From NCBI GenBank assembly GCA_001275005.1, contig JWZX01001868.1, forward strand, positions 1 to 34,874: a DNA stretch of 34,874 nucleotides, read 5' to 3'. Below the pieces are notes generated by a model. The model was not told where the DNA came from. It ran no database searches and worked only from the letters and a program-made list of their open reading frames with translations. Both the position numbers and the translations under genes were made by a program. This stretch comes from Chrysochromulina tobinii. Lineage: Eukaryota. Positions 5,881 through 25,900 of this stretch are shown here, piece by piece. Every line of letters begins with the position of its first letter. Within the stretch, counting starts at the first letter, position 1.

Positions 5881-8800
5881 TTATCCCCGACGAGCACGGG
5901 CCACGAGCCAGTCAGCCTCTCGCGGGGCGTGCTGTTCAGTGGCCTTGAAGGCCCCTCGAGAGGCCACCTCCGCGCTCGTGTCGCATGCCTTCGACGAGCA
6001 CCACTTCCTAACATGGGAGGTGTCGCATGCCTTCCACGAGCACCACGGCTCAATTGCCGGGGCACTCAGCGCATTGACGAGACCGAGAAAGGGCAGCCGC
6101 GCCCGCCAGAGTTCGCGTCGCTCACCTAAGTGAAAGGCACATCAGGGAGGTCATCAGGGAGGTCATCAGGGAGGCCATCAGGGAGGTCATCAGGGAGGTC
6201 ATAAGCGCCGCTCACCTAGGTGAAAGGCGACGAGCTCGGCCGCGGCGAAGTTGCGGTCGTACGCTTGCTCTTGCTTGGGCGCCGCGCCAAAGTAGGCCAC
6301 GTCATCGACCACCATGAGCCCTTTGGTGAACCACTTGCCTCCGGCTGCACACGCGGGCGGACGAGGTTGAATCACGCGGGCGGACGAGGTTGAATCACGC
6401 GGGCGGACGAGGTTGAATCACGCGGGCGGACGAGGTTGAATCAGAGGCAATTAGAGGCAATCAGAGGCAATCAGAGACAATTAGAGGCAATCAGAGGCAA
6501 TTTGAGGCAATCAGAGGCGATTAGAGGCGATCTTGGATGTCAGCAGAGACGTCATCACGTCATCAGGGAGGTCATCAGGGAGGTCATCAGGGAGGTCATC
6601 AGAGACGTCATCAGAGACGTCATCACGGAGGTCATCCGGGTGGTCCTCAGGAATCTCACCGGTCCAGAGCGTCGACGAGGTGCCGTTGGGCGCGAGCAGC
6701 CCGAGACCTCCGATCTGCGAGAGGAGATAGAGCACCTGTGGGGAAGGGGCGCCGTGGTGAGCATGCGCATGCAGCCCGAGGCCGCCGAACTGCGAGAGAG
6801 GAGATCAGAGCACCTGCCCACGATAGAAGAGAGGAGATAGAAGAGAGGAGATCGGAGGAGATCGGAGGAGATCAGAGGAGATCAGAGGAGATCAGAGGAG
6901 ATCAGAGCACCTGCCCACGATAGAAGAGAGGGTTGTGGCAATTGGGTCCTCCGAGTCGCACGCTGCGCCGCGGCTTGCCCGTGCGCCGGTCGACCAGACG
7001 AAGCATGGAGGTTGCGGCGAGATTGTTGTGCAGGCACCAGAGCAGGCGCGGCGTGGCGAGCACGTTGTTCGCGTGCGCGTGTGCGCGGCCGATCGCGGAC
7101 ATGCCCAGCGCGGTGGACACGCTGCGCTTGATCACCAGCCGTACAAATGGACCGCCACCCTCCATCCCGGGGTCCTCTAATCCCAACCATCCACCTTCCT
7201 TATTTGGACCACCTCTCTCAAATCGCAACGGTCGCACGCCGCCGTCGGCGCGCCATACGGTAAAGTTGGCCTCCGGAATCTGACGAATCTTCTTCGAAGA
7301 CCATTCCTTATTCGGACCAGCTTCCTTATTTGGACCAGCCTCCTCATTTGGATCTCCCTTGATTGCCCTTGATGACGACAGTATCTCGATGTCGAGCTCG
7401 AGCACACGCGCGGTAGCGGAGTCGACTACAAGGGGCGCCCATCGTGGTTATCAGTGGTAATCAGTGGTGATCAGTGGTGATCAGTGGTAATCAGTGGCAA
7501 TCAGTGGTAATCAGTGGCAAATCAGTGACCACACCAGAGGTCATCAGGGGCCATCAGAGTTCATTCACGCCTCTCATTCACACCTACAAGGAGCGTCCCC
7601 TCGTCGGAGAGGATTGAGTCATGAAGGTAGCCAGTGGGCAGCCCCCACTCGCCCGCCACACGCCTCGAGCCCGGATCGAGAAGCGTGAGGCCATCCATCC
7701 CGACACCGAGGGACGACGCGTTGCGTGCGGCGGGGCGCGAGTACTTCTCCTGGCTGCGGAGGGGGGTGGGGGGATGAGGATGAGATGAGGAGTGCAATCA
7801 GCATTCGGGACGGGAGTGCTTCTCCGCACGAGAAGCAATCAATCGCACTCATAGAGATCATCCGCGTTGAGTGCTTCTGAGATCTGCAATCAATCGCACG
7901 CAAAGAGGTCATCCGAGATGAGAAGCAATCAATCACACTCAGAGAGATCGTCATAGAGACAGGCCATCAGAGAGGTCATCCGCGTTGATCACCTGCCCAC
8001 GAGCAGCCACGGCGCCGTCCTGGGCAGCGGCACCACGCCATAGTAGTGGCCGTAGCCGCGGCTCAGCCGCCGGATGCAGCCCAGTCCCAAATCGAGCTCC
8101 ATGAGCGCCTGTGGGGAAAGGGCGCCGTGGTGAGCACATGGGTCCCAGCTCGAGCTCGAAGCGCGTCGTGGTGAGCACATGGGTGGCGTCGGGAGGATCC
8201 AAGATAACACTCACTAGCAATCACTTTCAATCACTTTCAATCAATCACAATCAGGAGCAATCAGGATCACTCAGGAGCACCTGGTGCGTCGACAGGAGCA
8301 ATCATGAGCAATCAGGAGCAATCAATAGCAACCAGGAGCAATCAGGAGCAATCAAGAGCACCTGGTGCGTCGACAGGAGCAGGCGAAACGCACTCGTGCC
8401 TCTCCCCGCCCACGCAGGCCACTGGTCGAGCGGGGGAGTGACGGAACACGTACGCCACGCGGGCGATGCAAGCGCGTTGGGTCGGGCGTAGATAGGCAAT
8501 TGCATGCCGATCGCGTTGGGTCGGGCGTAGATAGGCGATTGCCTAAAAAGGGACCCATGCCGATCCAAATTCGGATCCAAATGAAGAGGGCTCGCCCGGT
8601 ACGGCGCCGTGGGTGCGCCCGGTACGGCGCCGCCGATCCCGAGCCAACGAGAGAGGAAGTCTGGTATAGCTGGCATAGCGGCAGCCAGATGAGGCAGCCC
8701 GACGAGACAGCCCACGGCGACCTTGTTGCAGCTCTCGGGCATCGCGGCCGCTTGGCGCAGCCCGACGAGCCAGCCCACGGTGCGCACGAGACCAAATATG

Positions 8801-10779
8801 AAAGGTCCACTGCGCGAAGTGACGCTCGGGACGGCGCTCGAGTCGGCGCAAGTGCGACGGCGTGCTGTGAAGGCGAGCTGTGAAGGCGTCGGCGGCGGCG
8901 AGGGCGGCAGAGAAGGCGGCGGAGGGTGAGCGCCACCTCGCGCCGTCCCGAGCGCCCCCCGGCTGGCCTCGTGGTAGGCGACGGCCGCGACGATCATCGC
9001 GCCGACGACGCTCACGGCGACCAGCACCGTGTGCACGGACGAGAACATGTAGATGAACGTGTCGGCAGCGATACCGGGCAGGCTCTCGAACCGCTCAGTA
9101 CGGCGCGCGAGGGCCTCGATCGCGCTGCGGTTGTACACTGTGGGGAAGGGGCGGCCGAGGCTGAAGTCGGGCACTAAGCCGGGGTACCGACGGCGCACGC
9201 GGGTGGTGTCGTGCCTGTGGGGGTGGGGGCGCCGTAATGAGCAATTGTATGCACGGCGGCTGGCGGAAGGGGAGGCCTTGCAGTGAGGGGGAAGCCTTAC
9301 AGGGAGGCGCCGTGGTGGCAAGAAAGAAGATGAGGGGGGCACTCAGCATGAACACTCCGCGCACCCAAATGGTGAGTCCTCGACCGCAGCTCGCAATCAA
9401 CACGCAATCAACACGCAATCAACGCAATCAACGCAATCAGCGCGCACCCAAATGGTGAGTCCTCGACCGCAGCTCGCAATCAACACGCAATCAACATGCA
9501 ATCAGCGCAATCAACGCAATCAGCGCGCACCCAAATGGAGAGGCCTCGACCGCAGCTCGCAATCAACACGCAATCAACACGCAATCAACGCAATCAGCGC
9601 GCACCCAAATGGCGAGTCCTCAACCGCAGCTCGATGGACTGGCCGTTGCTGAAGCACCTGTGGGGAAGAGGGCGCCGTGCTGAGCACCCGCAGGCAGGCA
9701 GGCAGCTCGATGGACGGGCCGTTGGCGGCGCCGTGCGGAGCACCTTGAAGCCGATCGCGAGGCGCCACTGGTCGGGTTGCAACGCGTGGCTGTCGGTCCT
9801 GTGGATCTCCACCTGTGGGGAAGCGAGGACGCCGTGGTGAGCGTTTGCATGCAAAGGTCGGGTTGCAACGCGTGGCTGTCGGTCCTGTGGATCTCCACCT
9901 GTGGGGAAGCGAGGACGCCGTGGTGAGCGCTTGCATGCAAAGGTCGGGTCGCAACGCGTGGCTGTCGGTCCTGTGGATCTCCACCTGCGAGATCGCGGTC
10001 ATCAGCGCCCATCAGCGCCCATCAGAGGCCATCAGGGGCTATCAGGGGTCATCAGAGGTCATCAGAGGTCATCAGCGGCAATCCGATACCATCTGTGGCC
10101 ATCAGAGGCCATCAGTCGCAATCAGTGGCAATCAGTGGCCATCAGTGGCCATCAGTGGCAATCAGAGGCAATCAGTCTCTCCACCTGCTTGAGTACGAGC
10201 GCATCCCCCGACTGCAACGGCACCTGTGGGGAAGCGATAGGGAAGCGAGGGCGCCGTGGTGAGCACTTGCATGCGTCTGAGCGCATCCCCCGACTGCAAC
10301 GGCACCTTGATCGCCCGTGGCGTGTGAACGCCTCTCAAGGTGGCGCGTGCGCGGGGGGGGACCCATCCCAAGATGCCCTTGGCAGAGAGACGCACAGCCT
10401 GCAATCAAGGACGCACTCGGAGTGCATGCAATGAGGGACGCAATCAGCGGCACTCAGTGGCACGCAGAGGCACACAGAGGCACTCCGAGGCCATCGAGAG
10501 GAGCGGATGCGCCGTCTCGAGCACTCGGGGGCACTCAAGGGCTATCAGAGGCCATCGAAGGCCATCGAAGGCCATCGAGAGGAGCGGGTGCGCCGTCTCG
10601 AGCACCTCTTCCGGCGAGTGAAGCGGCTGCGTGCTCGAAAAGTTGGCGCCCGCTGCGCCGAAACGAGCCGCGTAGCACGCGTCGTACCTGTGAATAATCA
10701 AAGGTCATCAGAGGTCATCAGAGGTCATCAGTGGCAATCAGAGGTCATCAGCGTCGTGCCCATGTTCTCCAAGGCACTC
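5881..10779 (-). CDS. Multi-exon gene, apparently 5'-incomplete: 2OG-Fe(II)-oxygenase-like C-terminal motif, one TM helix, and a beta-propeller-like (TIGR03032/DUF4915-like) C-terminal domain
   Basis: Phase-consistent manual model: exons 10779-10760, 10687-10594, 10223-10185, 9812-9744, 9657-9605, 9214-8362, 8108-7993, 7753-7584, 7425-6911, 6735-6660, 6344-6216, 6125-5881 (TAA); optional in-frame exon 10398-10306. Translation includes VPLQSGDALVLKQVEIHRTD...WRLAIGFKV, TM VLVAVSVVGAMIVAAVAY, and CHNPLFYRGQVLYLLSQIGGLG...WFTKGLMVVDDVAYFGAA. Most exons are missed by the ORF track. Confidence 0.7.
6350..6443. repeat. Intronic 23-bp tandem repeat, 4 copies (CACGCGGGCGGACGAGGTTGAAT)
   Basis: Directly visible, next to the acceptor at 6345-6347 (minus strand). 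It is followed by 10-bp and 12-bp satellites up to ~6650. Confidence 0.95.
6736..6773 (-). mobile_element. Intron 3'-end cassette copy (introner-like)
   Basis: gcatgcgcatgctcaccacggcgccccttccccacag, preceded by a ~40-nt degenerate copy of the next exon's head. Confidence 0.7.
8109..8141 (-). mobile_element. Intron 3'-end cassette copy (introner-like)
   Basis: catgtgctcaccacggcgccctttccccacag; a partial second copy lies at ~8163-8182. Confidence 0.7.
9215..9252 (-). mobile_element. Degenerate intron 3'-end cassette copy
   Basis: gcatacaattgctcattacggcgcccccacccccacag; supplies the acceptor of exon 9214-8362. Confidence 0.55.
9359..9632. repeat. Intronic ~73-84-bp tandem repeat made of an exon tail, its donor and a CGCAATCAA satellite
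   Basis: The block CGCACCCAAATGG..GTCCTC.ACCGCAGCTCG (exon 3' end plus GT donor on the minus strand) occurs four times, separated by 9-11-bp satellite units. Confidence 0.9.
9658..9695 (-). mobile_element. Intron 3'-end cassette copy (introner-like)
   Basis: gcctgcgggtgctcagcacggcgccctcttccccacag, ending the 86-nt intron 9743-9658. Confidence 0.65.
9770..9987 (-). repeat. 86-bp tandem unit: three copies of a 46-nt CAG+exon-head block alternating with two copies of the cassette
   Basis: Head copies at 9770-9815, 9856-9901 and 9942-9987; cassette bodies at 9816-9855 and 9902-9941. Confidence 0.95.
10224..10274 (-). mobile_element. Intron 3'-end cassette copy with an internal duplication
   Basis: gcatgcaagtgctcaccacggcgccctcgcttccctatcgcttccccacag, preceded by an exact 27-nt copy of the exon head GTGCCGTTGCAGTCGGGGGATGCGCTC. 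Confidence 0.75.
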
Positions 10780-10931
10780 CTTGGTCATCAGTGGTCATCA
10801 GTGGTCATCAGTGGTCATCAGTGGTCATCAGTGGTCATCAGTGGTCATCAGAGGCAATCAGAGGCAATCAGAGGCAATCAGAGGCAATCAGAGGCAATCA
10901 GAGGCAATCAGAGGCAATCAGAGGCAATCAG
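10700..10931. repeat. Intronic 10-bp satellites (GTGGTCATCA)n switching to (GAGGCAATCA)n
   Basis: Directly visible; the unit changes abruptly at ~10850. Confidence 0.95.
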
Positions 10932-10941
10932 AACTCCTCAC

Positions 10942-12494
10942 CTGTCCGCCGACCGGCGGCAGCTTCGCATGCAATTTGAGGATCGTGTCGAGATGTCCCG
11001 TGTCGAGCAGCCGGTCAGCTTCGTCGAGCACGAGGAACTGCGAGGGCGAGAGAGAGGGGGAGGAGTGAGTCGAGAGAGAAGAAAACGATCGCAGTCAGAA
11101 GCACTCAGACACTAGAGACGCAAACAGAGGCGCAATCAGAGGCAATCCGAGGCGCAATCAGAGGCAATCCGAGGCGCAATCAGAGGCAATCCGAGGCGCA
11201 ATCAGAGGCAATCCGAGGCGCAATACGAGGCGCAATCAGGAGAGATCGCACCTGGACCCCCGAGAGCACGAGCTTGCCCGAGCTCACCAAATCCCACACG
11301 CGCCCGGGCGTGCCACATACAATGTCGACGCCTGCGCGCAACCGCTTGAGCTGCGGACCTGGATCCACGCCACCTGAGAGGCAATCAGCGGCAATCGGCG
11401 GCAATCGGCGGCAATCAGCGGCAATCAGTGGTAATTCGTGGCGCAATCAGCTCCACCCCACCGGTAAGGAGGGCAGCCTCGAGGCGCGGCTCGGCGAAGT
11501 AACGGCTGAATTGGGCCACGCACTCGTGCACCTGCTCGCACAACTCCCTTGCGGGCTCAAGGATCAGGGCAGTCGGTATGCGCCCCTCGCCATCAGCACC
11601 GCCGCCACCGCCGCCGCCGCCGCCGCTACCGGCAGCGGCAGCGGCGTCCCTGCTGCTAGAGGTGGCGGCCGAGTTGGTGGCCGCGTGTTCGGGAGCGATC
11701 GCGTCGAGAGCATGCGCGCCGCCGGGGAGGCAGTTTCCATAAAAGGGTCGAGCGCCCAAGTTGATGCGCACCGCGGCGCCCTTGAGGCAAATCGCGGGGA
11801 AGAGCGCCGTGCCCTTGAGCGTCGGCGGCACCGAGAACGCTTCTCCGAGGCTCACGCCGTTCTTGTAGAAGGCCATCGAGCCGATCTCGCGATCGAGCTC
11901 GCAGCCGATCACGTCGCCGCGCGCGTACGAGTCTCCGTAGTCGACGAACTGGTTGCCGTTGGACTTCTTGCCGGTCCCCCCAAAACCGAAGCCCATCTTG
12001 TCGGTGCCGAGCGCGAGCTTGGCCGAGAGGGTGGCCCATCCGACACGGCAGAGCCCATCGCCCAGCTGCTCCACCTCGTAGTAGTAACGGCCGCCCGTCA
12101 CGCCCACGCCCGCCCGCCCGCCCGCCCACGCCTGCGCGGCCCCACACGAGCACTCGAGCCCTTGCGCGCTCACCTGAAGCAGACCGTCGCGATCGCTGCC
12201 GAAACCTATGCCACCCGCGGCCTGCGCGCGTGCGGCCGCCGCCGCGAGCGCAGCGATCTTTGGCTGCGATGAGGCGGCTGCCTGCTCGCGCAGTGCCTCG
12301 TGGCAGATCTGGAGAACGGGCAGTGCAAAGGCCCCCGTCTTGCCGCTGCCCGTCTCGGCGGCAGCCATGACGTCGCCGCCGCCGAGGATTAAGGGGATCG
12401 CCTCCTGCTGCACGGGCGTGGGGAGGAGCCAGCCGAGGTCTTCGACTGCGCGCACAATCGGCGCGTCGAGGCCAAGCTCGGCAAAGGCTGCCAT
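10942..12494 (-). CDS. DDX1: DEAD-box RNA helicase DDX1, N-terminal half only (Q motif, Walker A, SPRY insert, motifs Ia-II)
   Basis: Exons 12494-11462, 11373-11252, 11037-10942. MAAFAELG...[35 protein letters not shown], the SPRY insert characteristic of DDX1 (GRYYYEV...CRVGW...[11 protein letters not shown]), [23 protein letters not shown]. No motif III or HelicaseC exons found downstream. Confidence 0.92.
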
Positions 12495-12742
12495 GTGCGG
12501 CAAAGACTCCGAAGAATTTTGCTGCGTGCCTGCGTGAACGCAGCTGTGAACAATTTTTCCAAAAACTTTCCAGGTTTAGGACACAGCTGAATCTCTAAGG
12601 ACGCGTCGCCATGGGCGTTTCACATGAGGTTTCTGCAACAAGAAATGGTCGAGTCGTCGGGCGTATCCCCCCGACACGTAGCGGCGCCATTAGGCTCTGT
12701 ACACGCGCCCTCCTTCTCGCGCCTTTCTCGCGGCCGGCACAC

Positions 12743-14194
12743 ATGGATGCCTTCGTTTGGAGGCGTGAAGGCCCATGGTGGCTAGAAGGAAGCCGCGCAG
12801 CCTCTGCAGTGGCCTCCATACCCGCGCCTGTGACTCCCGTGCTTGCGTCGGTGCCGAGCCGCGTGGCCTCCATCGTGGCGTCTGCTGTCATCCCCGCATC
12901 CAGCACACCCGTGCGCTGCGGCGAGCTGCTTTGCCAACACGACTCGTACGCTCGTACGCTGGACACCGTGGTCGTCTCTTGCGAGCCCAAGGCGGCTCAA
13001 GAGGCTGCAGCCAAGGGCAAGAAGAAGGGCGGTGCCGAGGCTGTGCCGGCTGAGCAGCTTTGGGACGTGGTGCTCGGCAACACGGTCATCTTTCCGGAGG
13101 GTGGAGGCCAGCCGAGCGATTGCGGCACCGTCGGCGGCGTGCCGTGCCTGCGCGTCGACAACGTCGACGGGCTTGCGAAGCACGTGCTCACCGCGCCGCT
13201 CGCGCCCGGTACGCCCGTGACCGTCGCCGTCGAGTGGGCGCGGCGCGAAGACCACATGGCCCAACACTCGACGCAGCACCTCGTCACGGCCATCGCCCTC
13301 AAGAAATGGGGCTACGAGACCACTTCATGGGGCCTCGGCGAACAGACTTCCTTCCTTGAGCTCGGGACCCCCGAGTTCACGTCGGCGCAGATGATGGAGC
13401 TCGAGACAGCGGCGAATGAGGCGGTCAAGGCCGGCACGCCGGTCACCCCCTCGTGGCACTCGGTCGTCGCGGTCAACGAGGGCGCCGTCGCCGGCCTGCG
13501 CAAGTCGTCAAAGGCACTACCGCCGAGCGTCACGGGGCCCGTCCGTGTCGTGTCCTTCGAAGGGATCGACACGAACACATGCTGTGGCACCCATGTGCAG
13601 AACACTGCACGGCTGCAAGCAATCAAGCTGCTCCGCGTCGAGCGTGTCGGCAACAAGGGCGCGTGCCGTGTCCACTACGTCGCCGGCGGACGCGTGGTCT
13701 CGTACCTTGGAGGCGTCTACGAGCGTGCAAGCGCCCTCGCTAGCCGAATGAACGTGCCAATCGAGTCGATGCTCGAGCGCTACGAGGAGAATGCGAGGAA
13801 GGCCCTCGAGCACGAGAAGGCGTCCAAGGCGCTCGCGCTCGAGGTCGTCGGCCTCCTCGCAGAGGGTCTCCTCCAGAGGCTCACCGCGGGCGAGAAGGCG
13901 GTGCTCGTGCGCCGCGCGGCCGCCGACGCCGATTTCGTCAAGGCGCTCGCGACGGCGCTGGACGAGACGCTGGCGGCGAAGCAGGCGCTGCTGCTCGTGG
14001 TGGTCGGCGAGGGCGAGGGCGAGGGCACCTTCACCCTCGCTGGGCCGCCGGCACTGGTTGACGTTGCCAGTGGCGCGGTGGCCCAGGCGCTCGATGGGCG
14101 CGGCGGCGGCAAGGGCGGCCGCTACCAAGGGAAGTGCCAAAAGCTCGCGGGCGCCTCGGAGGCTCTCGCGGCTGCGGTGGCAGCTTTGGCGTGA
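12743..14194 (+). CDS. AARSD1: Alanyl-tRNA editing protein AlaX (AARSD1-like) with a C-terminal DHHA1 domain; in-frame upstream ATG at 12611
   Basis: TVIFPEGGGQPSDCG, zinc ligands HSTQH and CCGTHV, C-terminal GGGKGGRYQG. Intronless and head-to-head with DDX1. Confidence 0.9.
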   Translation: MDAFVWRREGPWWLEGSRAASAVASIPAPVTPVLASVPSRVASIVASAVIPASSTPVRCGELLCQHDSYARTLDTVVVSCEPKAAQEAAAKGKKKGGAEAVPAEQLWDVVLGNTVIFPEGGGQPSDCGTVGGVPCLRVDNVDGLAKHVLTAPLAPGTPVTVAVEWARREDHMAQHSTQHLVTAIALKKWGYETTSWGLGEQTSFLELGTPEFTSAQMMELETAANEAVKAGTPVTPSWHSVVAVNEGAVAGLRKSSKALPPSVTGPVRVVSFEGIDTNTCCGTHVQNTARLQAIKLLRVERVGNKGACRVHYVAGGRVVSYLGGVYERASALASRMNVPIESMLERYEENARKALEHEKASKALALEVVGLLAEGLLQRLTAGEKAVLVRRAAADADFVKALATALDETLAAKQALLLVVVGEGEGEGTFTLAGPPALVDVASGAVAQALDGRGGGKGGRYQGKCQKLAGASEALAAAVAALA

Positions 14195-15340
14195 CACCGG
14201 GCACGCTTGAGGCACGCTGAGAAGTCCACGGGCAGCTTGACTCACTGCTCGTCGGCTCGCGTGTGGGTATGCGTTCGATCTCGTTTCTCGAGCCGTACGT
14301 GTGCGGAGACCGCGCATTGGTGTGCCCCTCTAGTGCCCCTCGTCTAAGGCGCGCGCGTCGTCGATGAGCAGTGGGGTGCGGCGGCAAATCGATGGTGTGC
14401 ATGGCCTTAGGCGGGGGGCCGCGTAGCGGGGGGGATCAGGAGGCACAGGCCGACACGCGAGGGATGCACCGCCGAAAAACTCGACTTCGAGGCACCTCGG
14501 GGAGTTCGAGTTGCGAGGAACGGAAGCGACTAGCACTAGGGGTTCACGGTCTGTAAATTGACGTAAGTTGTGCTCCGAAATAGGGGTGATGGGGGAAAGT
14601 TCAACGGACAACGCTGGTCATCCTAATCGAAACCACAGATGTTATTACACGACACGAATCGTTAACCGTAAATCAAACGGGACGAAAATGTACCGCTATA
14701 ATCGCCAAAACGTGTCAAAACGTGTCCATCTGCCATCATTTCATGTGTGGTTATAATCCTGGGACTTATCTGAAAATAATCATATTAAATGCGGGCAAAT
14801 CCGCTACCGCGATAGCTGGCGTCGGAAGAGCAAGGAGGTGGCTCGAGAGATGGACCCAAAGCTGGGCGTTTTCTGACCCGTTCATCGGCCCGTTCACCCT
14901 GCAGTGCGAACAGCGCCGGCGACAGGTCGGACATCGTGCGGCTTCACGATTGTGCCCTCAAGAAGCAACGTATAGCACCCCCGAGCCCCGTTATTCTCCT
15001 TGGACCTTGGAACTTGCTCAGATATCAACAGATAGCCATTTTAAACATTTTTAGCATCGGCCCAGGCCGCGTTGGTCCACAGGGATTACTCGGTGCGAGC
15101 TGCGAGGCCGCCGCGTTGTCGTTTTTTCTTCATGCGTGTCGTTGCACCCAACTTTGGCTCCAAAAATAGCGTGAAATAAGTGAAACGACATTCTCCCCAA
15201 AACGCACTCGGAGCGAGCTTTCTCGCGGTCCTCACGGTCTTCGTTGCAGGGCTCTTCCTGCCTCCCGTCTGCAGCCTGGTTCTGTGCTGCTTCTTAGTGC
15301 GTCAGCGTGCGTTCAACACCTCCACAATCAGCACCTGACC

Positions 15341-17084: not shown

Positions 17085-18179
17085 CTATGCCTTCTTGGTT
17101 TTGCTGACGTGTGTCTGGTAGTCCGGCGTCAGATGTGCGGTGAGAGCTGTCAGAAGGGCCATCGTGTTGTACCCAAGGAGCTGGATCACGAGCCGCAGCC
17201 CCACGCTCACACCGCCCAAGTCCGCGACGATTGCTCCGCGTCCAATGTGGCTGAGGAACTTTTGGGGAAGCACCTCCGGCCCAGAGGCGAACTTGTAAAA
17301 GGCGGCCATGGCCTCGATCTTGCGCTGCTGGACCTGGTTGCCTCCGCCGGCGGTGAAGCGGCTGTTGACAGGCGAGGGGTGGATAGAGTGCACGTGGATT
17401 CCACGCGGCCTCGCTTCGCAAGCGAGGCTGGCGGCAAAGGCCGAGACGCCCGACTTGGTGGCGCCGTACATGACGGCGAATGGGTTGGGGATATACGATG
17501 CGGAGGAGGAGGTAAAGACGATGCAGCCGCGGAGCTGTTTGGCGAGCATGCGCTCGTAGAAAAAGTGGCTCAGCCAGATGTTCGACGTCAGGTTGCAGTG
17601 CAGATTTGCGAGGTGCGCGCCAACGGCATTCTGCTCAAACATGCCAGTAAGGATGTAGCCAGCATTGAGGAAGACGCACTGGACATCGTTGTCGCCGACC
17701 GCGGCCTTGACGCCCTCCATCCACACGCCAGTCCCGTCCGAAAGATTCGCATTCACACGAACTACCTTGCGTGACGGGAACTGCTGCGACAGCTCCGCGA
17801 CGGTGTCGCCGAAGAGGGGCTCGTCGCGGGCAACGAGGATCACGTCGAGCTCCTGCTTGAGCAAGGTGCGCGCAAGCTCCTTGCCGATGCCACTGGACGA
17901 ACCGGTCACAAGCGCCCACTTGGCGCCGTACTTTTTCTTCAGATTTTGGCTGGGGAGCAGCATTGGAATCACGCTGTTCAGCACAAAGTACGCAACCGGC
18001 GCGAAGCCCAACACGCAGAGCCAGAAGGTGGAGGACGTAAGGAGACAGACTAACTGGTCGAGCGTACTCAGGAGTATCGGCTGCACCACAGCCCACGCGT
18101 CGATGGCTGACAAAAAGGCGGAGGCCAACGTATCGGGCGGCGGCGACGGTGGTGGTGGCGGCGGCGCCCTGAAAAACAT
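17085..18179 (-). CDS. Short-chain dehydrogenase/reductase, 17-beta-HSD/ketoacyl-CoA reductase-like, membrane-anchored
   Basis: N-terminal hydrophobic segment, KKYGAKWALVTGSSSGIG, NAG, catalytic S...YGATK. Confidence 0.9.
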   Translation of the reverse strand: MFFRAPPPPPPSPPPDTLASAFLSAIDAWAVVQPILLSTLDQLVCLLTSSTFWLCVLGFAPVAYFVLNSVIPMLLPSQNLKKKYGAKWALVTGSSSGIGKELARTLLKQELDVILVARDEPLFGDTVAELSQQFPSRKVVRVNANLSDGTGVWMEGVKAAVGDNDVQCVFLNAGYILTGMFEQNAVGAHLANLHCNLTSNIWLSHFFYERMLAKQLRGCIVFTSSSASYIPNPFAVMYGATKSGVSAFAASLACEARPRGIHVHSIHPSPVNSRFTAGGGNQVQQRKIEAMAAFYKFASGPEVLPQKFLSHIGRGAIVADLGGVSVGLRLVIQLLGYNTMALLTALTAHLTPDYQTHVSKTKKA

Positions 18180-18310
18180 TGGGCAAAAATTACGTGTGCT
18201 GTTTCAGATCGCAATCTCGAAACGTCGATAGGATGTCGAGCCACACAATGTGGGGAAAACTAGTAGAAGGGCCAAGCTGACCTGTGCGACGCGTCGCAAA
18301 ACTCACGGTC

Positions 18311-19888
18311 TCAGCCGCCCGCCTTCGCCGCCCTGGCGACTTCGCGTTGTACAAAGTCGGTCACGCACCGCGCCGCCTCGAGCTGCTCGTTCTCAGCGCG
18401 GCTCGCGCTTTCGCGCAGCGTGCGCGCCACGTCCGCGACTCCCAGGCGCGCGGCCACCTCCCAATCGAAGCCGTCCAAGTACGCAGCGACTGAAGGCGCA
18501 TTCGGTGTCACGTGCGTCCCGTCGAGGCGCTTGAAGTCGAGACGGCCGCCGAGCCCCGTCGCCTTGTCAGTGAAGCGCGCCTACAGATGCAGCCGGGATC
18601 AGGGGGAGTGAGGGAGGGCAGCGTGCAATGAGGGAGGCCACTCAGCATTCGTCGCCTTGCCCACGGAAGCGCACCTGCAACCGTTTCGCGAGGGCGCTCG
18701 ACTGATCGATCTCGTCATTGACGAAGCGCACGAGGAGATTGCGCCCGACGGCGTAGCTCGATGAGACGAGATGATCCATTTCCGCAGGGCCAGGCGTGAA
18801 CTCGGGGACGCTGGTGGCCGTGCTCGCGCCCGCGCCCGCGCCCGCACCAGTGTCGGCACCGCCGCCGCCGCCAGGGCCACCGACGCCCCCGCCGGCCGCA
18901 CCCGCGGCGGCGCCTGCCGAGCGCCGTGCACGCACGCTCGCGTCAGCGGCGCCTCGGCTAAAGGCATCGAGCTGCGACGCTGTCGTGTCGAGAGCCCGGC
19001 GCACAGCCTCCACGGTCGAGGTGGACGCCGCCCGAGAGCGCTGTGCCGAGCGCTCCTCGAGCGACTCGCTCAGCCCTTGCAGTGTGCTCGCCACTCCCCT
19101 GCCAAGCATCGCTCCAAGCTCACCTGTGGGCAAAATGGCGCCGTGGTGAGCACATGCATGCAAGGCAATAGCGCTCCAAGCTCACCCGCGCTCCCTAGTG
19201 CACTGCCCGCCCCTTGAGCGACCGTCGTGCCGAGCACGTCTGCCAGCCGCCCGCCCTGCGCGGCGTCACTCAGGCGCACGGCCTGCTCGAGCAGCGGGAT
19301 CGACTCCGCCGCGGCGAAGTTGTTGTACGCGATCAAGACGTTCGCCGCCCGCGGGCCGAGCACCTCGATCATCTTGGCGTCCGACCCCAGTAGCACAAGC
19401 AACTTGGCTCCGAGCGAGTGGCCGAGCCCGACCGTTGGGAGCGTGTCTGTGGACGGATCGCCGCGCACAAAGAGCGCCGCGTCGAGCTCGCGCTTCGCGG
19501 CGCACCATCGAAGCAGCACCTCACTCGCAGCCCCCCAGTGGTCGAGGCCGGTCAGGCCCTGCACGGGCGTGGCCACGATGCCCAGGCCCGTGCCGACGGC
19601 GACGGCCTCGAGGAAGGGACTGTAGGCTTGGCGTGGCGCGGCGCCCACGAGTGCGCCACCCACAAAGTGCACCAAGCCGGTGCAGGGCGTGCCTTCCTCA
19701 GGCAGCAGCACGTCGCACTCACCGATCCGCTGCCAGCGGTTGACCGCACGCGGACGACCGTTGTCAGCGCCCGAGGCCTGCCCACCACGGCCCCAATCAT
19801 CCGATGCGTACGCGCCCGAAGCGGTGCATTGCGGTGGCCGCGCACGCACGATGGCGGCGAACGTGGCGACGGCCGCTAAGAAACCCAT
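18311..19888 (-). CDS. DUF1350-family alpha/beta-hydrolase, probably plastid-targeted; 3 exons
   Basis: Exons 19888-19186, 19123-18675, 18580-18311, phase consistent. VHFVGGALVGAAP, GHSLGAKL nucleophile elbow, NLLVRFVNDEIDQS, LDGTHVTP. Signal-plus-transit-like N-terminus. Confidence 0.85.
19124..19185 (-). mobile_element. 62-nt intron = 14-nt exon-head duplication + linker + cassette
   Basis: G|GTGAGCTTGGAGCG ctattgcctt gcatgcatgtgctcaccacggcgccattttgcccacag|GTGAGCTTGGAGCG. Confidence 0.75.
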
Positions 19889-19942
19889 GTTCCTGTTCAA
19901 CACAACGCCGAGGACTCAGAGGCGCTCCCTCCGGAGGATGGT

Positions 19943-19996
19943 AAAAAGACACCGGGGGAGCCGGGACACACACGGGACACACGGACCCTACCGGTA
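19943..19996 (+). repeat. Left copy of a ~54-bp inverted repeat pair
   Basis: AAAAAGACACCGGGGGAGCCGGGACACACACGGGACACACGGACCCTACCGGTA matches the reverse complement of 22723-22776 with few differences. Confidence 0.9.
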
Positions 19997-20603
19997 GCAC
20001 AGGAAGCCACAATCACTATGGACGGAGGAGTGGCCTACACAGCCCGTGGTAACACTTCCGTATTAACACAGGCCGTTACATGTGTAGTCGGCAGCGTGGG
20101 GGAAGAGGAGGCGCCGGGCAGCGCCGGGCCCCCTTTCCTGCTACGCGTCGCACCGGCGGCGTTTTTGTGGAAATGAGAAAGCGAGCTTGCCTGCACATGG
20201 TGGGAGCTCGCTTGCCTTCTCGGGATCTGCAGCGGGACGATCCACCGTTGGTGAGATGCCAGATGGGTACGTATAACGTGAGTTCGTGGTACGACTCAGA
20301 CGCGCTGAGCATTGCCGCTGAGGGCGCGCGAAGAAACTATGACGAAACATGTTTCGTCCCAGTCAACACGAGTTCGCGTAGGGCCCGGTTCAAAAACTTT
20401 ACCGAAAAACACCTTAGGCAGCCGGGAGACGGGACACAGTGACACGAGTCACGACACACGTGGTCACCGGACAGGACAGTGACAGACACACAATTAAACA
20501 CAAAGAAGGAGAATTTCACAACCATGCAAACCGACTAAAACCGACTTCACCCCCGGTACTTCCGGTTCGGGTGTCCGCGCGGTCCCGAGCTGTTCCCAAG
20601 TTC

Positions 20604-22358
20604 TCACATGGATACGGCACAACCGGATCTCGTCACTACGCCAAGCGCCATGCTGGTCATTGCCGCCCACTCGTTCGTCGCCGGATCGTACCGCTCAACG
20701 GAGCTGAGCCGGTTTTGGCCGTCATGGCCGCCCATCACATACAGCTTGCCGTCGATTGCCGCCGCCGGACTGGTCCGTGCCGTGGGCATCGGTGCGACTG
20801 CCTCCCAGGCATTCGTCGCCGGATCGAACCGCTCGACGGAGCTGAGGTAACCATTAGGACCATAGCCACCCATCACATACAGCTTGCCATCGATTGCCGC
20901 CGCCGCCGAAGCGGCTCGTGCCGTGGACATCGGTGCGACTGCCTCCCAGGCATTCGTCGCCGGATCGAACCGCTCAACGGAGCTGAGCCGGTTTTCGAGC
21001 CGGTTTTGGCCGTCCAGGCCCCCCATCACATACAGCTTGCCATCGATTGCCGCCGCCGCCGGCATGACTCGTGCTGTGGACATCGGTGCGACTGCCTCCC
21101 AGGCATTCGTCGCCCGATCATACCGCTCGACGGAGCTGAGCTGGTTTTGGCCGTCATGGCCGCCCATCACATACAGCTTGCCGTCGATTGCCGCCGCCAC
21201 CGGACCGGTCCGTACTGTGGACACCGGTGCGACTGCCTCCCAGGCATTCTTCGCCGGATCGAACCGCTCGACGGAGCTGAGCCTAACTCCATTAGGACCA
21301 TAGCCACCCATCACATACAGCTTGCCGTCGATTGCCGCTGCCGCCGGACAGCTTCGTAACGTGGACGCCGACGCCAGTGCCTCCCAGGCGTTCGCCATGG
21401 AATCGTACCTGCAAAGGTAAAGGGTGGCCAACGCATCGCTCGCAAGCCCGCCCACAATGTAGAGCTTCTCAAAGCCCATACGACGACGCGCCGAGTCGCC
21501 GTGCAGTGCGCCAAAAAAGGTCCGGCTCAGCATCTGCATGCCAGCAACGGTCAAGAGGAGCGGCTCGTTGTGCACCGTCTCTTGGACAAACTCGCGCCTC
21601 AGCAGCGGGAAGCGCACCAGCCGAAGCAGTGCCAGCGCGTCGTCCTCGGCGGGTGGAGGCGCCTGGGCGTGCAGCCACGTGACCGCTGCCGAGTACACAG
21701 CCTCTTCACCAGCCACCTTGAGCCGGTCGGAGGCGAGCAGCGCACGCACGGTCTCTGCCGGCGTGCTCAGCCACGCGGGCGTCGCTGCGATCTGCTCAAA
21801 GTGGCGAGTCGCTGCCGACACCGCGTGAGCCGCGAGCTGGCTCAGACCCTGCCGGTCGGCGACGGCCCAGTAGGCGAGGGCTGTGGTCGCGCTCAGGTGT
21901 ACACTCATTGCCTTGGCCGCGGCGTCCACAAGGTGTGGAATCTGCAGATAGGCCGCCGCCTCAAGCACGACCATCAGCTCTGCCGCATCGGCGACTGTGC
22001 AGCTCCCCGTGTAGATGAACTCGAGGCATGCGGCGAGCCCTTGCTTCGGGACCACGGGCAGCGACAGCGGCCGGCCGGCTGTGTCCGCCCACCGCTCACC
22101 GGCTAGCAGGCGCTCAAAGTACTCCGAACCCGAGGTGATGCACAGGGCGTGAGCGTGGAAGGCGGTGCCGTCCGCCGCCACCACCTCGACGTCGGTGAGG
22201 CGGCCATCGCGAAATTTGGCGATGGTGCTAGGCTTCTCGGCGAGGCCGCCCACGAGCTCGATCGATGCGGCGGAGGGTGCGTCGGCGGAAGCGCGGGCGC
22301 GCTTTCGGGGCGGCATAAAAAGGAGACCTGGTGACGAGCAAACATCTCGTCTTCCCAC
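20604..22358 (-). CDS. BTB-BACK-Kelch protein (KLHL-like Cullin3 adaptor); alternative start MPPRKRAR at 22316
   Basis: BTB (LTDVEV...FHAH...SEYF...LEFIYTG), BACK (EEAVYSAAVTWL...LLRLVRFPLL), six Kelch repeats (KLYVMGG...SSVERYDPATNAW). Intronless. Confidence 0.95.
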   Translation of the reverse strand: MGRRDVCSSPGLLFMPPRKRARASADAPSAASIELVGGLAEKPSTIAKFRDGRLTDVEVVAADGTAFHAHALCITSGSEYFERLLAGERWADTAGRPLSLPVVPKQGLAACLEFIYTGSCTVADAAELMVVLEAAAYLQIPHLVDAAAKAMSVHLSATTALAYWAVADRQGLSQLAAHAVSAATRHFEQIAATPAWLSTPAETVRALLASDRLKVAGEEAVYSAAVTWLHAQAPPPAEDDALALLRLVRFPLLRREFVQETVHNEPLLLTVAGMQMLSRTFFGALHGDSARRRMGFEKLYIVGGLASDALATLYLCRYDSMANAWEALASASTLRSCPAAAAIDGKLYVMGGYGPNGVRLSSVERFDPAKNAWEAVAPVSTVRTGPVAAAIDGKLYVMGGHDGQNQLSSVERYDRATNAWEAVAPMSTARVMPAAAAIDGKLYVMGGLDGQNRLENRLSSVERFDPATNAWEAVAPMSTARAASAAAAIDGKLYVMGGYGPNGYLSSVERFDPATNAWEAVAPMPTARTSPAAAIDGKLYVMGGHDGQNRLSSVERYDPATNEWAAMTSMALGVVTRSGCAVSM

Positions 22359-22680
22359 AGCCCCGCGGAAGCAGAAGTGCTGAAACCGAACTTACGCGTC
22401 AAGTAACGCGTCAAGACGAACAAGTCGTCAGTCTCGTCACTTCTCTTAATTCTCTTAACACTTCTCGACTTCTCGTCACCTCCTCACAAGTGAGTTACCT
22501 CACATTCTTCTAATAACACCCGGATCTCATCAATCTTCTGTGAACGCGGGCACTGGATGTGGGCATGTCGCGTGTCGGCTGGCAGCGCCGGCGGCGGCGG
22601 CCCATGTCAGATCGGTGTGCGACATGTACATGTAGAACAAGTGAACAACCGACAAGTTTTATCAAAACGACAACACAACA

Positions 22681-22730
22681 GTACATGTACCGGTACAGTA
22701 CATGTACCGGTACCGGTACATGTACCGGTA
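22681..22730. repeat. Nested GTAC palindromes, including a perfect 28-bp palindrome
   Basis: GTACATGTACCGGTACCGGTACATGTAC at 22698-22725 equals its own reverse complement. Confidence 0.95.
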
Positions 22731-22776
22731 AGCCCGTGTGTCCCGTGTGTGTCCCGGCTCCCCCAGGAGTCTTTTT
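22723..22776 (-). repeat. Right copy of a ~54-bp inverted repeat pair
   Basis: Near reverse complement of 19943-19996. Confidence 0.9.
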
Positions 22777-22785
22777 TGGCGTTTA

Positions 22786-22828
22786 CTTGACTTGACTTGA
22801 CTTTGGCGTTTGACTGACTTGACTTGAC
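22786..22828 (+). promoter_or_regulatory. (GACTT)n pentamer array upstream of LRRC45; candidate promoter or 5'UTR motif
   Basis: acttgacttgacttgac...tgacttgacttgac ends ~75 nt before ATG 22903. Similar arrays lie at 26122-26147 and 33189-33208. Function is inferred only. Confidence 0.35.
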
Positions 22829-22902
22829 CACCCGCTCGCCTCACGAGCGCATTCCTACCCGTCGCGAGCGTGTGCTAATCCGTGTGCTGCTGCTCCCCTG
22901 TT

Positions 22903-25900
22903 ATGACGGCTGAACCCTCGCCCGATGCATTCGTATTGCCACCCGTGCCCTCTCCAACGCTCTCCTTCTCGGACCGCTGCCTTGGCGACCACGGCGTGCG
23001 CGCTCTGGTTGCCGCACTCTCGGTCCGCCGAGACGTCACCTCGATCGACCTGCGCGGCTGCCATGTGCATGCGGCCGGTGCGCTTGCGCTCGCCGAACTG
23101 CTGCTTGGCCCTGGAGGCAGCCGCATCGGCTCGCTCTCGCTCGAGTGGAACGCGCTCGGCACCTCGGATGCGGGCCCGCGGGCGATCGCCCGTGCTCTCG
23201 CGGCCAACTGTGCCCTCACCGCCCTCGATCTGCGCAACAATCGTATGGGCTCATCGGGGGTCGCATCCCTCGCGGAGGCTCTCGCGTACAACAGCACGCT
23301 CATCACCTTCGACTTGCGCTGGAATTCGGCCGGCGTGAGCGGCGGCTTGGCGCTCGAGTCGGCGCTCGCGCAGAACAGGACGCTGCTGCGGTTGCTGCTG
23401 CAGGGCAACCGCGTGCCCGACGACCTGCTCAAGCGCATCGAGCGGCTGCTCGGACGCAACGGCGCCGCCTCGAGCCTTGTCGCCGGCGCCTCAGCGCCCT
23501 ACTCCGAGGACTCCTCGGACAGGTGGCCTGCGATCATATCCTCCCACGCCCTGCCGGGGGAGAGGCTTCTCGTCGCACCGGCGGCGAGGGTGGGCGCGCT
23601 GTCCGACCGCGCGTGCTCCGCCATTGCGAGCACGGCCGACGTGGCCGTGGACGCCTCTCAGTCGTCGCTGTCGCCGCCGCACGGGCTGCTCCGTGCCGCG
23701 TCAGTGCCACCTGTGCCGCCGTCCACAAGCACGCAAGTGCACCTCCACTTGCATGCAGAGGCCAAGGAGAACGAGGCTGGCCAGCTCATCGCTCTACCAC
23801 CGGTATCGGCCGCTGCCGGTCTCGCACTCTTGCCCCCCGCCGGCGGCACAGCAGCGGCCGCGGAGGGTGCCTCAGCGGCGTCACGCTCGCTCAGTGCGTC
23901 GCTGGCGACGGCCGGCGGTTACGTGGCCGACTCGAGGTCCTCGCTGCCACCCGGCGGCTACGTGGCAGACCCGAGGTCCTCGCTGCCGCCTCCGCCAGGC
24001 TACTCCGCCGACGACCCGTGTGCTTCGGTGCCGTATGCGGCGGAGCCGAGTGCCTGCCTGCCGCCCGGCTACGCCGCCTACTCGATGCCCTACGCGGCGG
24101 ATGCGAGCACGTCCCTGCCGCCCGGCTACGCGCCGCCGTCCTCGCAGATGGGCTCGGTACCGGCGTCGATGCCCACGTCGTGGATGGCGTCGCCAGCCCC
24201 CACGCCGCTGCGCGCAGCGGTGCGCACGCGCACGCTCGAGAACGCCCTGGTGCTGCAGCACGCCGAATTCAGTAACAAGCTGAAGCACGCCTTCGAGCGC
24301 GCGGACGCTGCCGAGGAGATCTTGACCTCGGAGCGATCTCGCGCCGACCAGCAGCGTGAGAAGGCCCTTGTGGCGGCGACTGAGGAGGCGGAGGCACGTA
24401 AGAAGCTCGCGCTGCTGCAGCGCGAGCTCACGGAGGCGCGTAAGAAGGCGGACGAGGAGGTGGCGCGCGTACTCAAGGAGGGGTCGACCCGGGAGCAGCG
24501 CACTGCTCTCGCCGAGGCCGCGCGTGATCACCTCGAGCGCGAGCTGCAGGCGCGAGATGCGCGCCTCGAGTGCACATGATCGCATCTGATGGCCCCTGAT
24601 AGCCTCTGAGTGCCTCGATTGGCCTTTGCATGCAGGCGCGAGATGCGCGCCTCGAGATGGAGCTCAAGGCGATCGCCGATCGCGAGCAGCGGGCGGCGAT
24701 GGCTGAAGCACGCGCGGCCGAGTCCGCGTCGCAGCTGAGCGCGCTCAACGAGCGGCTACTCAACGAGCGGCGCGCGCACGCCACCACGCTCACGGAGCTT
24801 CAGGACCGTCTGAGCGACGCGAACCCGACTGCACCACGGCTCGGCATGCACGTGCTCACCACGGCGCCCTCCTCTCCCCACAGGACCGTCTGAGTGACGC
24901 GGAGGCGGTACGCACCTCCGCGGAGCTCCGCCTCGCCTCCGCCGAGGCGGCGCGTGCTGCGGCGGTCACGGAGGCTCTCTCGAGGCAGTCGCGCCGTCAT
25001 GAGCAGGCGCTCGAGCAGGTGCGCGTGCATGCATGCTGATGGTCCCCTCTCCCCGGTTGCATGCATGCTCCCCACCCTTCCCTCCGCGCAGGTGCGCGTG
25101 TCCGTCGAGCGCGTGCCTGCATGCTGATTGCCCTCCCCATTTGCAGGCTGACTACCCCCGCCCTCCCGAGCAGGTGAAAGAGTCCGTCGAGCGCGCCGAG
25201 GCCGACGCGGCGCGCGCGGCCGAGCAGATCTCCAAGCACCGAGATGAGCTCGAGACGGCGCGAGCCCTCGCGGAGACGAAACAACGGTCGCTCGAGAGCC
25301 AAGCTGTGGAGCGCGAGGCGGCGCTGGAGAAGAGCTACGAGGCGCGCCTCGAGGCGGTGGAGAAGGAGAAGGCGTCGCTGCGCGAGTCGCACCACGCGAC
25401 GCTCAGCCAGATGCGCGAGGCCGAGGAGGTACGCCGGCAACAGCACGACGTGAAGCTCGATACGGCGCGCAAGGCGCATGCAACGCTGGAGCGGCGCTGC
25501 TACGAGCGCGAGGCGCATGCGGAGAGTCTGGAGCGGGAGCTCGCACGCGTGCAGTCCGAGTTGGCGGAGGCGGGGCACGCGGAAGGCGCCCTCAAGGAAG
25601 CCCTCGAACGACAGCGCGAGGCGGCCGCGGAGCAGAGCGCCGCCGCGGCCGCGGAGCTCGCGACGACGCGTCGCCACTGGGAGGAGCGACTGGCGACGGC
25701 CACCGCGGACAACCGCGCGCTCGCGCGCCAGCTGCTCGACACACAGCGCGAGCTCGCCCTCGCCAATGGCCGTTGGGAGGCGTCGGTGCAGACGCTGCAG
25801 CACTCCGTGCTCCAGTGCTTCCAGCATTCAATCGAGTCGACGCGCGGGGGAGGGTCGCCACCACTGATGGCTGGAGAGCTGGGCGACGAGGACGAGGAGG

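Follow-up and report, generated by a model that had tools for sequence, protein, structure and literature searches.

Introns of Chrysochromulina tobinii with a shared acceptor tail probably arise when the 3' end of an older intron is copied into a donor-like site in an exon

The window analysed here (contig JWZX01001868.1, 34,874 nt) contains three host genes in which a short acceptor cassette recurs. Host gene 1 (5880..10687, minus strand, ends approximate) has at least 12 exons and an 812-aa open frame, and carries seven copies. Its residues 389-811 match the homologue P0134, and no homologue of residues 1-388 was found among 2 database matches. Host gene 2 (18312..19888, minus) encodes a DUF1350 protein with an open frame of 473 aa, and host gene 3 (22903..25868, plus) an LRR and coiled-coil protein with one of 881 aa. 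Placement of the minus-strand copies inside DDX1 was ruled out: the DDX1 homology stops at 10943 and the copies lie in the downstream gene. The first-pass annotation had reported the cassette at nine positions in these three unrelated genes (6736, 8109, 9215, 9658, 9813, 9899, 10224, 19124 and 24844), and it is indeed present at all nine. Each copy is sense to its host and terminates at the acceptor AG of the open-frame gene models. The copies at 9813 and 9899 are two units of a single 86-nt tandem repeat, and the window therefore holds eight sites rather than nine.

In most cases the cassette was said to be preceded by a head copy, i.e. a duplicate of the head of the next exon. This is clear at 9813, 9899, 10224, 19124 and 24844; at 6736, 9658 and 8109 the copy is degenerate and at 9215 it is absent. 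At four of the nine positions the head copy is the only donor. The 86-nt intron 9658..9743 (minus) consists of a degenerate head copy with a GT donor and the cassette; both splice sites are predicted, and retention cuts the frame from 812 to 153 aa. In the 82-nt intron 10224..10305 (minus, splice predicted) an exact 27-nt head copy supplies the GT donor, the cassette holds an internal 11-nt duplication, and retention leaves 133 aa. The DUF1350 gene contains a 62-nt intron (19124..19185, minus) with a 14-nt head copy, a GT donor and again a predicted splice. The 80-nt intron 24804..24883 (plus) of the LRR/coiled-coil gene combines an 18-nt head copy (17/18 identical, with an inferred GA donor) with the cassette at 24844-24883. 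Its spliced product aligns without gaps to P0127-P0131, and retention truncates the protein at 634 of 881 aa.

The copies at 6736, 8109, 9215, 9813 and 9899 stand at the end of longer, composite introns, in which the first donor is found upstream. The cassette at 6736..6772 (minus) closes intron 6736-6910, which is built from a tail duplicate with a microsatellite donor, followed by a degenerate head copy (6773-6813). Three RNA contigs (X12 rec 2, X14 rec 10 and X15 rec 16) depart from the exon at 6904, a position compatible with no AG other than that at 6736, and this splice gives a gap-free alignment to P0134 and P0135. The copy at 8109..8141 (minus), which lacks GCATGC, closes intron 8109-8361 behind a decayed head copy (8142-8165). 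Here, X14 rec 10 has, by length arithmetic, 115 letters left for exon 7993-8108, and the splice aligns gap-free to P0134. A diverged cassette at 9215..9252 (minus) closes intron 9215-9604, with an 83-nt tail-plus-donor tandem repeat upstream of it; X15 rec 19, which carries 165 letters from elsewhere, joins the exon at 9213. The tandem units at 9813..9984 (minus), each a 43-nt head copy (exact at 9813, near-exact at 9899) plus cassette, have their AGs at 9813 and 9899 and sit inside intron 9813-10184, behind an older acceptor. Acceptor use is supported by RNA contigs at three of the nine sites (6736, 8109 and 9215). Among the RNA contigs listed, none spans any of the four stand-alone junctions, which counts against the reading proposed below; at 19124 and 24844 this absence carries no weight.

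Several other introns of the window have a related build with a different filler. The 86-nt intron 24550..24635 (plus) joins a head copy of about 21 nt, with a GC donor, to a microsatellite-type tail; a single RNA contig, X14 rec 23, crosses it in unspliced form. The 155-nt intron 25019..25173 (plus) combines head copies that have decayed with tails of another family that contain GCATGC, and its GT..AG joint is found in RNA run X15. Intron 18581..18674 (94 nt, minus) of the DUF1350 gene has a decayed head copy and a non-cassette tail. In the 90-nt intron 6126..6215 (minus) the duplication spans the junction, with both tail and head surrounding a microsatellite filler, and P0134 aligns across it. 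A mirror build is seen in the 158-nt intron 7426..7583 (minus), which ends in a decayed copy of the upstream exon's tail and is flanked by adjacent RNA pieces in X14 rec 10 and X15 rec 17. This tail-duplicate class is claimed for window examples only, as most rows classified automatically as tail duplicates are head duplicates a few bases longer.

Beyond the window, a pattern scan found at least 120 distinct cassette copies in unrelated coding contexts among the matches listed. The pattern required 23 exact bases in conserved blocks, which inflates the apparent conservation. The 40-nt consensus as written, searched with a tolerance of up to 3 mismatches, recovers only 4 of the 9 window copies (shuffles: 0 matches in 100), because the pyrimidine tract varies in length and the copies at 8109, 9215 and 9658 have no intact GCATGC. 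Extrapolation suggests that the whole genome probably holds thousands of cases. Cassette copies are strictly sense to coding sequence: Pfam matches occur in 22/142 sense flank pieces and in 0/150 antisense ones, and the ferrochelatase and PP2C profiles continue across the cassette junction. Coding-like sequence lies downstream of 109/130 sites, as compared with 104/121 for reference CDS and 5/138 for intergenic DNA, and a mixture estimate from these flanks puts about 97% of the sites in coding sequence. The earlier claim of a cassette in host-sense orientation that stops at the acceptor AG thus holds both in the window and, by the Pfam and coding flanks, in the wider family. Viral contigs yielded 0 matches to the cassette.

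The two ends of the cassette behave differently. Copies end in CAG without a tail, GT directly follows the AG in 105/120 distinct copies among the matches listed, and only one candidate overrun (L008, 6 nt) was seen among 114 duplicated sites. Such a precise 3' end would suit a fixed element end or the RNA of an excised intron, which speaks against the copying of half an intron. The 5' ends are ragged, and in 29/145 copies they are common to different loci for 8-21 nt (controls, >7 nt: 0/162).

The head duplicate was found upstream of 82/115 distinct copies among the matches listed, against 2/570 in other-locus and 8/113 in same-locus controls. Its length spreads continuously from 15 to 53 nt, in agreement with the long, variable duplications proposed earlier, and the insert (filler) measures 27-84 nt. 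The 5' part of the intron, a locus-specific exon copy, has a median of 29 nt out of 76 nt. With 95 differences over 2,591 nt (3.7%), the head copies are young. For 34 perfect copies, head and insert length trade off against each other (rho -0.74); a length floor explains this only in part, a further point against half-copying. Filler-free tandem duplications of 14-53 nt were also counted: 96 in 241 kb, of which 65 are multiples of 3.

Cutting from the duplicate to the AG gives a continuous frame in 35/37 testable cases. Where the length is not divisible by 3, the frame is continuous in 23/24 cases when spliced and in 0/24 when unspliced. Together with the homologue alignments, this bears out the proposal that splicing restores the coding sequence exactly. 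The first head copy had also been proposed to become the donor. This applies to the stand-alone introns, which make up 72/88 head events and have no preceding microsatellite intron, and fails for the composite ones; the other 16/88 events follow a microsatellite intron. The stand-alone targets are ready-made donor sites, G|GTRCG: position -1 is G in 57/72 (background 27%), +3 is R in 65/69, +4 is C in 48/69 and +5 is G in 52/69, with A at -2 in only 27/72. Homology between target and cassette end beyond -3 was not found, save for an isolated C at -6.

The empty site with one head copy that the first-pass annotation called for was found in a single pair for the cassette tail: the empty allele in L006 and L022, the filled one in L049. 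The empty allele has no intron whatever at this position. The gain in L049 measures 81 nt: 33 nt are a perfect duplication, and the other 48 nt match without a difference the tail of the adjacent intron, which lies about 0.5 kb downstream in the same gene. Microhomology of 2 nt and 4 nt is present at the two joints. A single assembly contributes the filled allele, whose 81 nt keep the reading frame and hold no stop codon, and whose splicing is predicted. Precise loss would be an alternative origin of the empty allele, and counts against half-copying at this locus.

Near-identical tails (score >=0.9) occur in 4/133 same-locus pairs and in 10/14,573 other pairs. Overall tail similarity is not raised within loci (median 0.52 within, 0.54 between, P=0.87), the enrichment being confined to the upper end of the distribution, so most parents should be old or distant. 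Loci whose flanks are unrelated, such as L060 and L112, can also have near-identical tails. The stretch of head start that similar tails have in common is not extended (mean 2.6 vs 2.4 nt), although a microhomology step predicts that it would be; this and the unraised median similarity are observations against half-copying. The build and length recur with unrelated tails, microsatellite-type ones included, and one of the unrelated tails is likewise polymorphic (L029 vs L072).

From these observations, we consider it probable that new introns form at a staggered break or upon a template switch, with an older intron's 3' end serving as the sequence that is copied into an exonic, donor-like site. 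Neither an element nor an enzyme dedicated to the process would be required. The target is the ready-made donor G|GTRCG in sense coding sequence, as observed. At this target a strand end may then find an existing AG|GT junction, pair with it over a few bases and copy 30-85 nt of the tail of that intron, after which the copied strand would rejoin by microhomology further along the exon, so that the exon head is made twice. In the one allele pair, the copied piece is the same as the neighbouring intron's tail. Coding sequence is restored by splicing that runs from the first head copy to the AG of the copied tail, as frame, homology and in part RNA show. Selection may subsequently keep products of at least about 62-65 nt with a branch point and a strong donor, and every new intron would offer a fresh template ending in AG|GTRCG, resulting in a self-feeding family. 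As to the template, RNA (pre-mRNA or intron RNA, used by a repair polymerase or a borrowed reverse transcriptase) is slightly ahead of DNA, because copies are almost absent from neutral non-coding DNA. A narrower version, plausible but held with less than even confidence, does without any transposon: RNA from the 3' end of one intron would act as template for repair at a cryptic donor, this donor lying in an exon that is transcribed and often belongs to the same gene, and each product would serve as a template in turn.

The portable acceptor tail that makes introns, as first proposed, is supported; its description as a discrete element is not. The 5' end is ragged and parent-inherited, the only parent resolved is the adjacent intron in the same gene, and this build is also seen with unrelated tails. 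A non-autonomous transposon, either SINE-like and mobilised by target-primed reverse transcription (TPRT) or a Replitron-like HUH element, is considered unlikely, though it fares best among the alternatives. It would account for the precise AG end, the ragged opposite end, the variable duplication, the fixed orientation, the target motif and the near-identical tails with unrelated flanks. In addition, Replitron-1 of C. reinhardtii leaves matching marks (an RG target, a parent-derived fuzzy end and a variable duplication), and one Replitron protein is reported from C. tobinii (PMC10288648). Against this stand the near absence of intergenic copies and the size of the cassette, which at only about 45 nt contrasts with 0.9-3.6 kb for Replitron-1/N1. 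The structural hallmarks are also missing. No terminal inverted repeats were found in five introns, as had been claimed, and five folds from the window revealed no stable hairpin (z -0.9 to +0.6; cassette fold z -0.44); the L049 intron alone was more stable than shuffled sequence (z -2.4), via complementarity of donor and branch point. The copies inspected have no poly(A) or simple-repeat tail and no direct terminal repeat, and the window gave no tRNA or Rfam match that would point to a tRNA/5S/7SL-derived head. A master or longer autonomous element ending in the cassette, for which the first-pass annotation suggested looking, was not seen in 237 kb of locus flanks.

It is rather improbable that these are old introns with a homogenised 3' end, whose head copies stem from later tandem duplication across the acceptor at no new positions. 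Such duplication explains 9813/9899 and the extra tandem unit of L110 relative to L069, and probably some of the 16 events behind microsatellite introns. For the stand-alone sites this explanation is already contradicted by the absence of a preceding microsatellite intron, the exact joining of frames, the intron-less empty allele and the 3.7% divergence of head copies.

Reverse splicing of an excised intron into a transcript, followed by partial reverse transcription and recombination into the gene, appears very improbable. This 5'-truncated intron transposition would fit the sense-only and coding-only copies, the exact AG end and the local bias. By itself, however, it yields no long duplication and should bring the parent's donor, and the targets show a donor signature at +3 to +5 rather than an exon-junction signature alone. 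Inserts also extend past the presumed branch point, on which ground the idea of a lariat branch fixing the 5' end was rejected. Convergent splice signals or an assembly artefact would draw on the exact blocks of the search pattern, but are already refuted by the 23 exact bases of that pattern, the 0 chance matches in shuffles, the recurrence of the structures in independent assemblies, DNA contigs running through 8111-9387 and 10246-10725, and the mutated head copies.

The sequence source of new spliceosomal introns is a long-standing question: for the gains in Daphnia the source is not known, and introners depend on a transposase. In the present case the source, the duplication and the target are all legible, and in one allele pair the parent lies about 0.5 kb from its daughter. 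If partial copying is correct, existing introns seed new ones without a conventional jumping gene; on the narrower RNA version, this would be a form of intron gain that is self-sustaining, transcription-coupled, still segregating in nature and invisible to introner screens. C. tobinii is a cultured species with a public genome. The break-repair and RNA-template models are directly testable in this system.

Local intron transposition is known from Oikopleura, and Emiliania huxleyi has 10-11-bp intronic repeats and GC donors. Intron transposition and reverse-transcription template switching, as far as described in PMC3443670, resemble the present case in using an existing intron, often of the same gene, as source; whole introns are moved there and no long duplication is made, whereas here only the 3' half is copied. 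The closest introners, with their own 3' splice site and a donor from the target-site duplication, are those of Symbiodinium, Polarella (classes 4-6, 8 and 10) and Aureococcus (PMC9860276, 10.1101/2020.10.14.339549). In both systems the repeat gives the acceptor, the duplication gives the donor, the mRNA is unchanged and one orientation is possible. The introners have fixed 3-9 nt duplications and fill the intron, whereas the cassette introns have variable duplications of 15-53 nt, about half of the intron is exon copy, the 5' end is ragged and inverted repeats are absent; neither hallmark of MITE-type introners (terminal inverted repeats, a short fixed duplication) is thus present. The introners of a Chrysochromulina sp. 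TARA MAG, according to a figure legend (PMC9860276, Fig. 2C), have a 4-bp duplication and no terminal inverted repeats; by description, they bring along the 5' splice site and take over the 3' one, the reverse of the cassette. By the definition of Gozashti et al., the cassette introns show similarity among introns of unrelated genes and a new intron upon insertion (one empty/filled pair and the frame tests, with splicing of the newest copy predicted), and lack similarity over approximately the whole intron including both ends. The 2022 pipeline filters out similarity limited to sub-portions of introns, and in a 2025 introner screen the entry for C. tobinii is 0 families (PMC12130899, supplement file 7), a blind spot of screens that require end-to-end similarity. 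Replitron-1/N1 shares an oriented short target, one precise end, one fuzzy parent-flank end and a variable duplication; it differs in its 6-bp direct terminal repeats, hairpin and HUH transposase, and the parts of its description considered here make no mention of intron-making (PMC10288648). In the Rogers tandem-duplication model (reviewed in PMC3443670) a duplicated exon also turns intron and supplies a splice site. Both sites derive there from the duplicated AGGT without foreign filler, whereas the cassette introns import branch point, pyrimidine tract and AG. Daphnia neointrons arise by staggered double-strand-break repair, with 4-12 bp repeats and mostly unknown AT-rich filler (PMC4202315). 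They likewise repeat the exon end at the far end of the new intron, exist as presence/absence alleles and undergo secondary internal duplications. The cassette introns fit this staggered-break type, but with longer repeats than reported there and with a filler that can be traced to the tail of another intron.

The half-intron tail family to which the cassette (an intron tail of about 40-45 nt ending at the acceptor AG) belongs is real, recent and family-wide. The cassette was found at all nine positions claimed by the first-pass annotation (6736, 8109, 9215, 9658, 9813, 9899, 10224 and 19124, minus strand; 24844, plus strand), although not as nine separate copies, since those at 9813 and 9899 form one tandem repeat. 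A strict consensus recovers four of the nine and gave no matches in 100 shuffles. Four stand-alone introns, with the duplicated exon head as sole donor, measure 62, 80, 82 and 86 nt; the remaining five copies close composite introns. The gene models joined by coordinate are open frames of 812, 473 and 881 aa, and retention of any single intron shortens the frame. The 881-aa model aligns without gaps to five homologues over all three introns. The donor at 24804 is inferred to be GA, backed by this alignment; that at 24550 is GC. The homologue P0134 aligns across six junctions with residues 389-811 of the 812-aa model, while for residues 1-388 (junctions 10224, 9813, 9658 and 9215) a homologue was absent among the protein matches.

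The RNA data comprise assembled contigs, one set from three RNA runs and one DNA run, the other from four RNA runs. Record 10 of X14 consists of pieces at 8361-8698, 7584-7753 and 6904-7425; its 115-letter gap matches exon 7993-8108 and thereby implies use of the AG at 8109 (by length arithmetic, the middle piece being unlisted). At 6904, three contigs among the matches listed exit the exon, compatible with the AG at 6736 and not with the nearer one at 6814. The RNA check proposed for cassette junctions supports acceptor use at 6736, 8109 and 9215, the stand-alone window junctions being uncovered among the matches listed. Record 19 of X15 enters at 9213, the basis for 9215, and then reads through CCCCACAG at 9138; the last eight cassette bases are therefore insufficient as acceptor. 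In the matches listed from the four RNA runs, 25019-25173 is the one GT..AG joint, whereas 24550-24635 is retained in one contig. At 19135-19166, all four hold contigs from another locus with two cassettes 24 nt apart (depth 5.6-9.8), which may reflect intron retention or a source RNA of high abundance; their spacer is similar to the ragged ends of metagenome loci L001 and L004.

One metagenome scan yielded at least 128 related loci with at least 152 matches, at least 120 of them distinct by downstream flank; the viral collection gave no cassette match. Of 120 copies among the matches listed, the AG is followed by GT in 105, by GC in 6 and by GA in 4. A copy of the exon head was detected upstream in 82 of the 115 listed copies with adequate flank (5 were left out), versus 2/570 and 8/113 in two controls. 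With a looser pattern (at least 162 sites), the duplicate begins at the AG in 88 and 2-14 nt later in 26 more. At L008 (oriented position 1417), six additional in-frame bases separate AG and head; they may have been copied from exon sequence of the parent beyond its AG. The predicted long, variable duplications were borne out by the listed matches: the duplicate measures 15-53 nt (median 29), the insert 27-84 (45) and the two together 55-99 (76). The duplicates are young: they show 95 mismatches to the exon in 2,591 nt, and 34 of the 88 listed are perfect. The exon at 72 listed stand-alone sites reads G|GTRCG, well over background, so a cryptic donor existed there before the event. In the 34 perfect events, head and insert lengths are inversely related (rho -0.74), and inserts >50 nt are never paired with long heads; a minimum intron length does not by itself explain this trade-off. 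GCATG(C) marks the 5' edge in several tail families unrelated to one another (the cassette, window 25019-25173, L029) and may be an intronic enhancer; it may resemble the RBFOX motif.

A model of coding sequence, trained on eight genes of the window, was correct in 91/121 windows of known sense sequence. It called the downstream flank sense at 99/130 listed sites, which at that accuracy fits nearly all sites being sense. Among 54 listed events with clean flanks, both sides were called sense in 37 and a side antisense in 17, a number matching the error rate. Pfam matched 22/142 sense pieces (two low-complexity) versus 0/150 antisense (the first 150 of 174), in agreement with the claim that the cassette is always sense. 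That splicing restores the coding sequence is likewise upheld, the frame being intact in 35 of the 37 both-sense events. Coding-like sequence follows about 97% of listed sites; neutral intergenic copies are thus rare, a scarcity for which blind insertion with later selection does not account well. The exact search pattern favours functional copies, though probably not sufficiently at 3.7% divergence. The sole listed cassette noted antisense to its near neighbours (L045:821-1100) adjoins inverted partial copies and looks like a DNA-level fold-back event.

An empty site with one head copy, sought from the outset, was found: 81 nt in L049 are missing from L006 and L022, which are identical and come from two assemblies. 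Of these 81 nt, 33 duplicate the head exactly; the other 48 are identical to the tail of the following intron, about 0.5 kb downstream, down to that parent's ragged 5' end and its pyrimidine-tract variant, and the joints share 2 and 4 bases. Gain is likelier than loss, although the filled allele comes from one assembly. Near-identical tails make up 4/133 same-locus pairs (the L049 parent-daughter pair included) versus 10/14,573 others, about 40-fold, among the matches listed, where median similarity is the same within and between loci. Of the seven best local pairs, four or five have the cleaner copy upstream and one has it downstream (by eye, weak). Since loci with unrelated flanks can also have near-identical tails (L060, L112) and share ragged ends of up to 21 nt, copying goes beyond local. 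A second tail family is likewise polymorphic (L029 versus L072), head-duplicate introns with microsatellite tails (62-84 nt) occur, and duplications of head-duplicate size without filler are common. In-frame, tail-free coding duplications of this size (18-48 nt) lie at 2618-2715, 5975-6050, 7304-7352, 8460-8545 and 23912-23987. Cassette copies are clustered (at least 60 extra in 177 kb of flank), as within-gene contagion would predict. Long intronless genes (12599-14194, 17085-18203, 20604-22391, 26180-28775; AlaX-like, short-chain dehydrogenase, BTB-Kelch and one unknown) adjoin a gene that has 11 introns or more.

What has been observed is the architecture, the target motif, the orientation, the restored frame and one parent-daughter pair. 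For the origin of new introns, a tail-copying class of mechanism is reasonably probable. A strand end at the cryptic donor would prime on an existing AG|GT junction, from which the intron tail would be copied; rejoining via microhomology would make the exon head twice, selection would impose a length floor, and each product could serve as a new template. An RNA template for the copying is slightly more probable than a DNA one. Against this copying stand the high precision of the 3' end, the unaccounted head/insert trade-off, and similar tails without an excess of shared head starts among the matches listed. That a non-autonomous transposon makes these introns is rather improbable, the chief reason to consider it being that Replitron-1 leaves the same marks.

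Intronic 10-12-nt microsatellites (1-275, 6140-6650, 7444-7527, 10000-10175, 10697-10932, 11114-11428) vary between introns, all with a TGAT core in sense orientation, and resemble branch-point arrays. Longer cassette versions grade into such units (L008, L083, L089, L091). DDX1 homology (10943-12494, minus) breaks off near residue 412 of 770-860. Its join to the following gene is out of frame and spans the 236-nt microsatellite 10697-10932, which no DNA contig bridges among the matches listed. The first 107 residues of the DDX1-like exon 11457-12494 are identical to the C. tobinii protein P0009, which like P0002 is a DDX1 5' half fused to other domains; this identity points to that haptophyte, or a very near relative, as the source of the window. 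In DNA run X2, 11684-12323 also occurs in another version, with many substitutions and roughly half the depth. The region is a truncated gene, a chimeric gene or a mis-join. Short repeats of GGGACAC type (19940-19990, 20425-20445, 22735-22790) and TTGAC type (22775-22828, 26125-26150, 33190-33210) lie immediately 5' of several genes and are a candidate shared promoter or 5' UTR repeat; loose contig ends occur at 19940-19984 in RNA runs.

The comparison with published systems drew on PMC9860276, PMC12130899, PMC10288648, bioRxiv 2020.10.14.339549, PMC4202315, PMC3443670, PMC11282704, PMC4580454, PMC2784329 and PMC11782384. The introner survey lists C. tobinii with 0 introner families (PMC12130899). 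Neither the cassette family nor half-intron copying with long duplications is described in the literature found, subscription papers being largely outside its scope. The cassette introns fail defining tests of SINEs, of Replitrons and of both introner types, yet in how they work they resemble acceptor-carrying introners and staggered-break neointrons.
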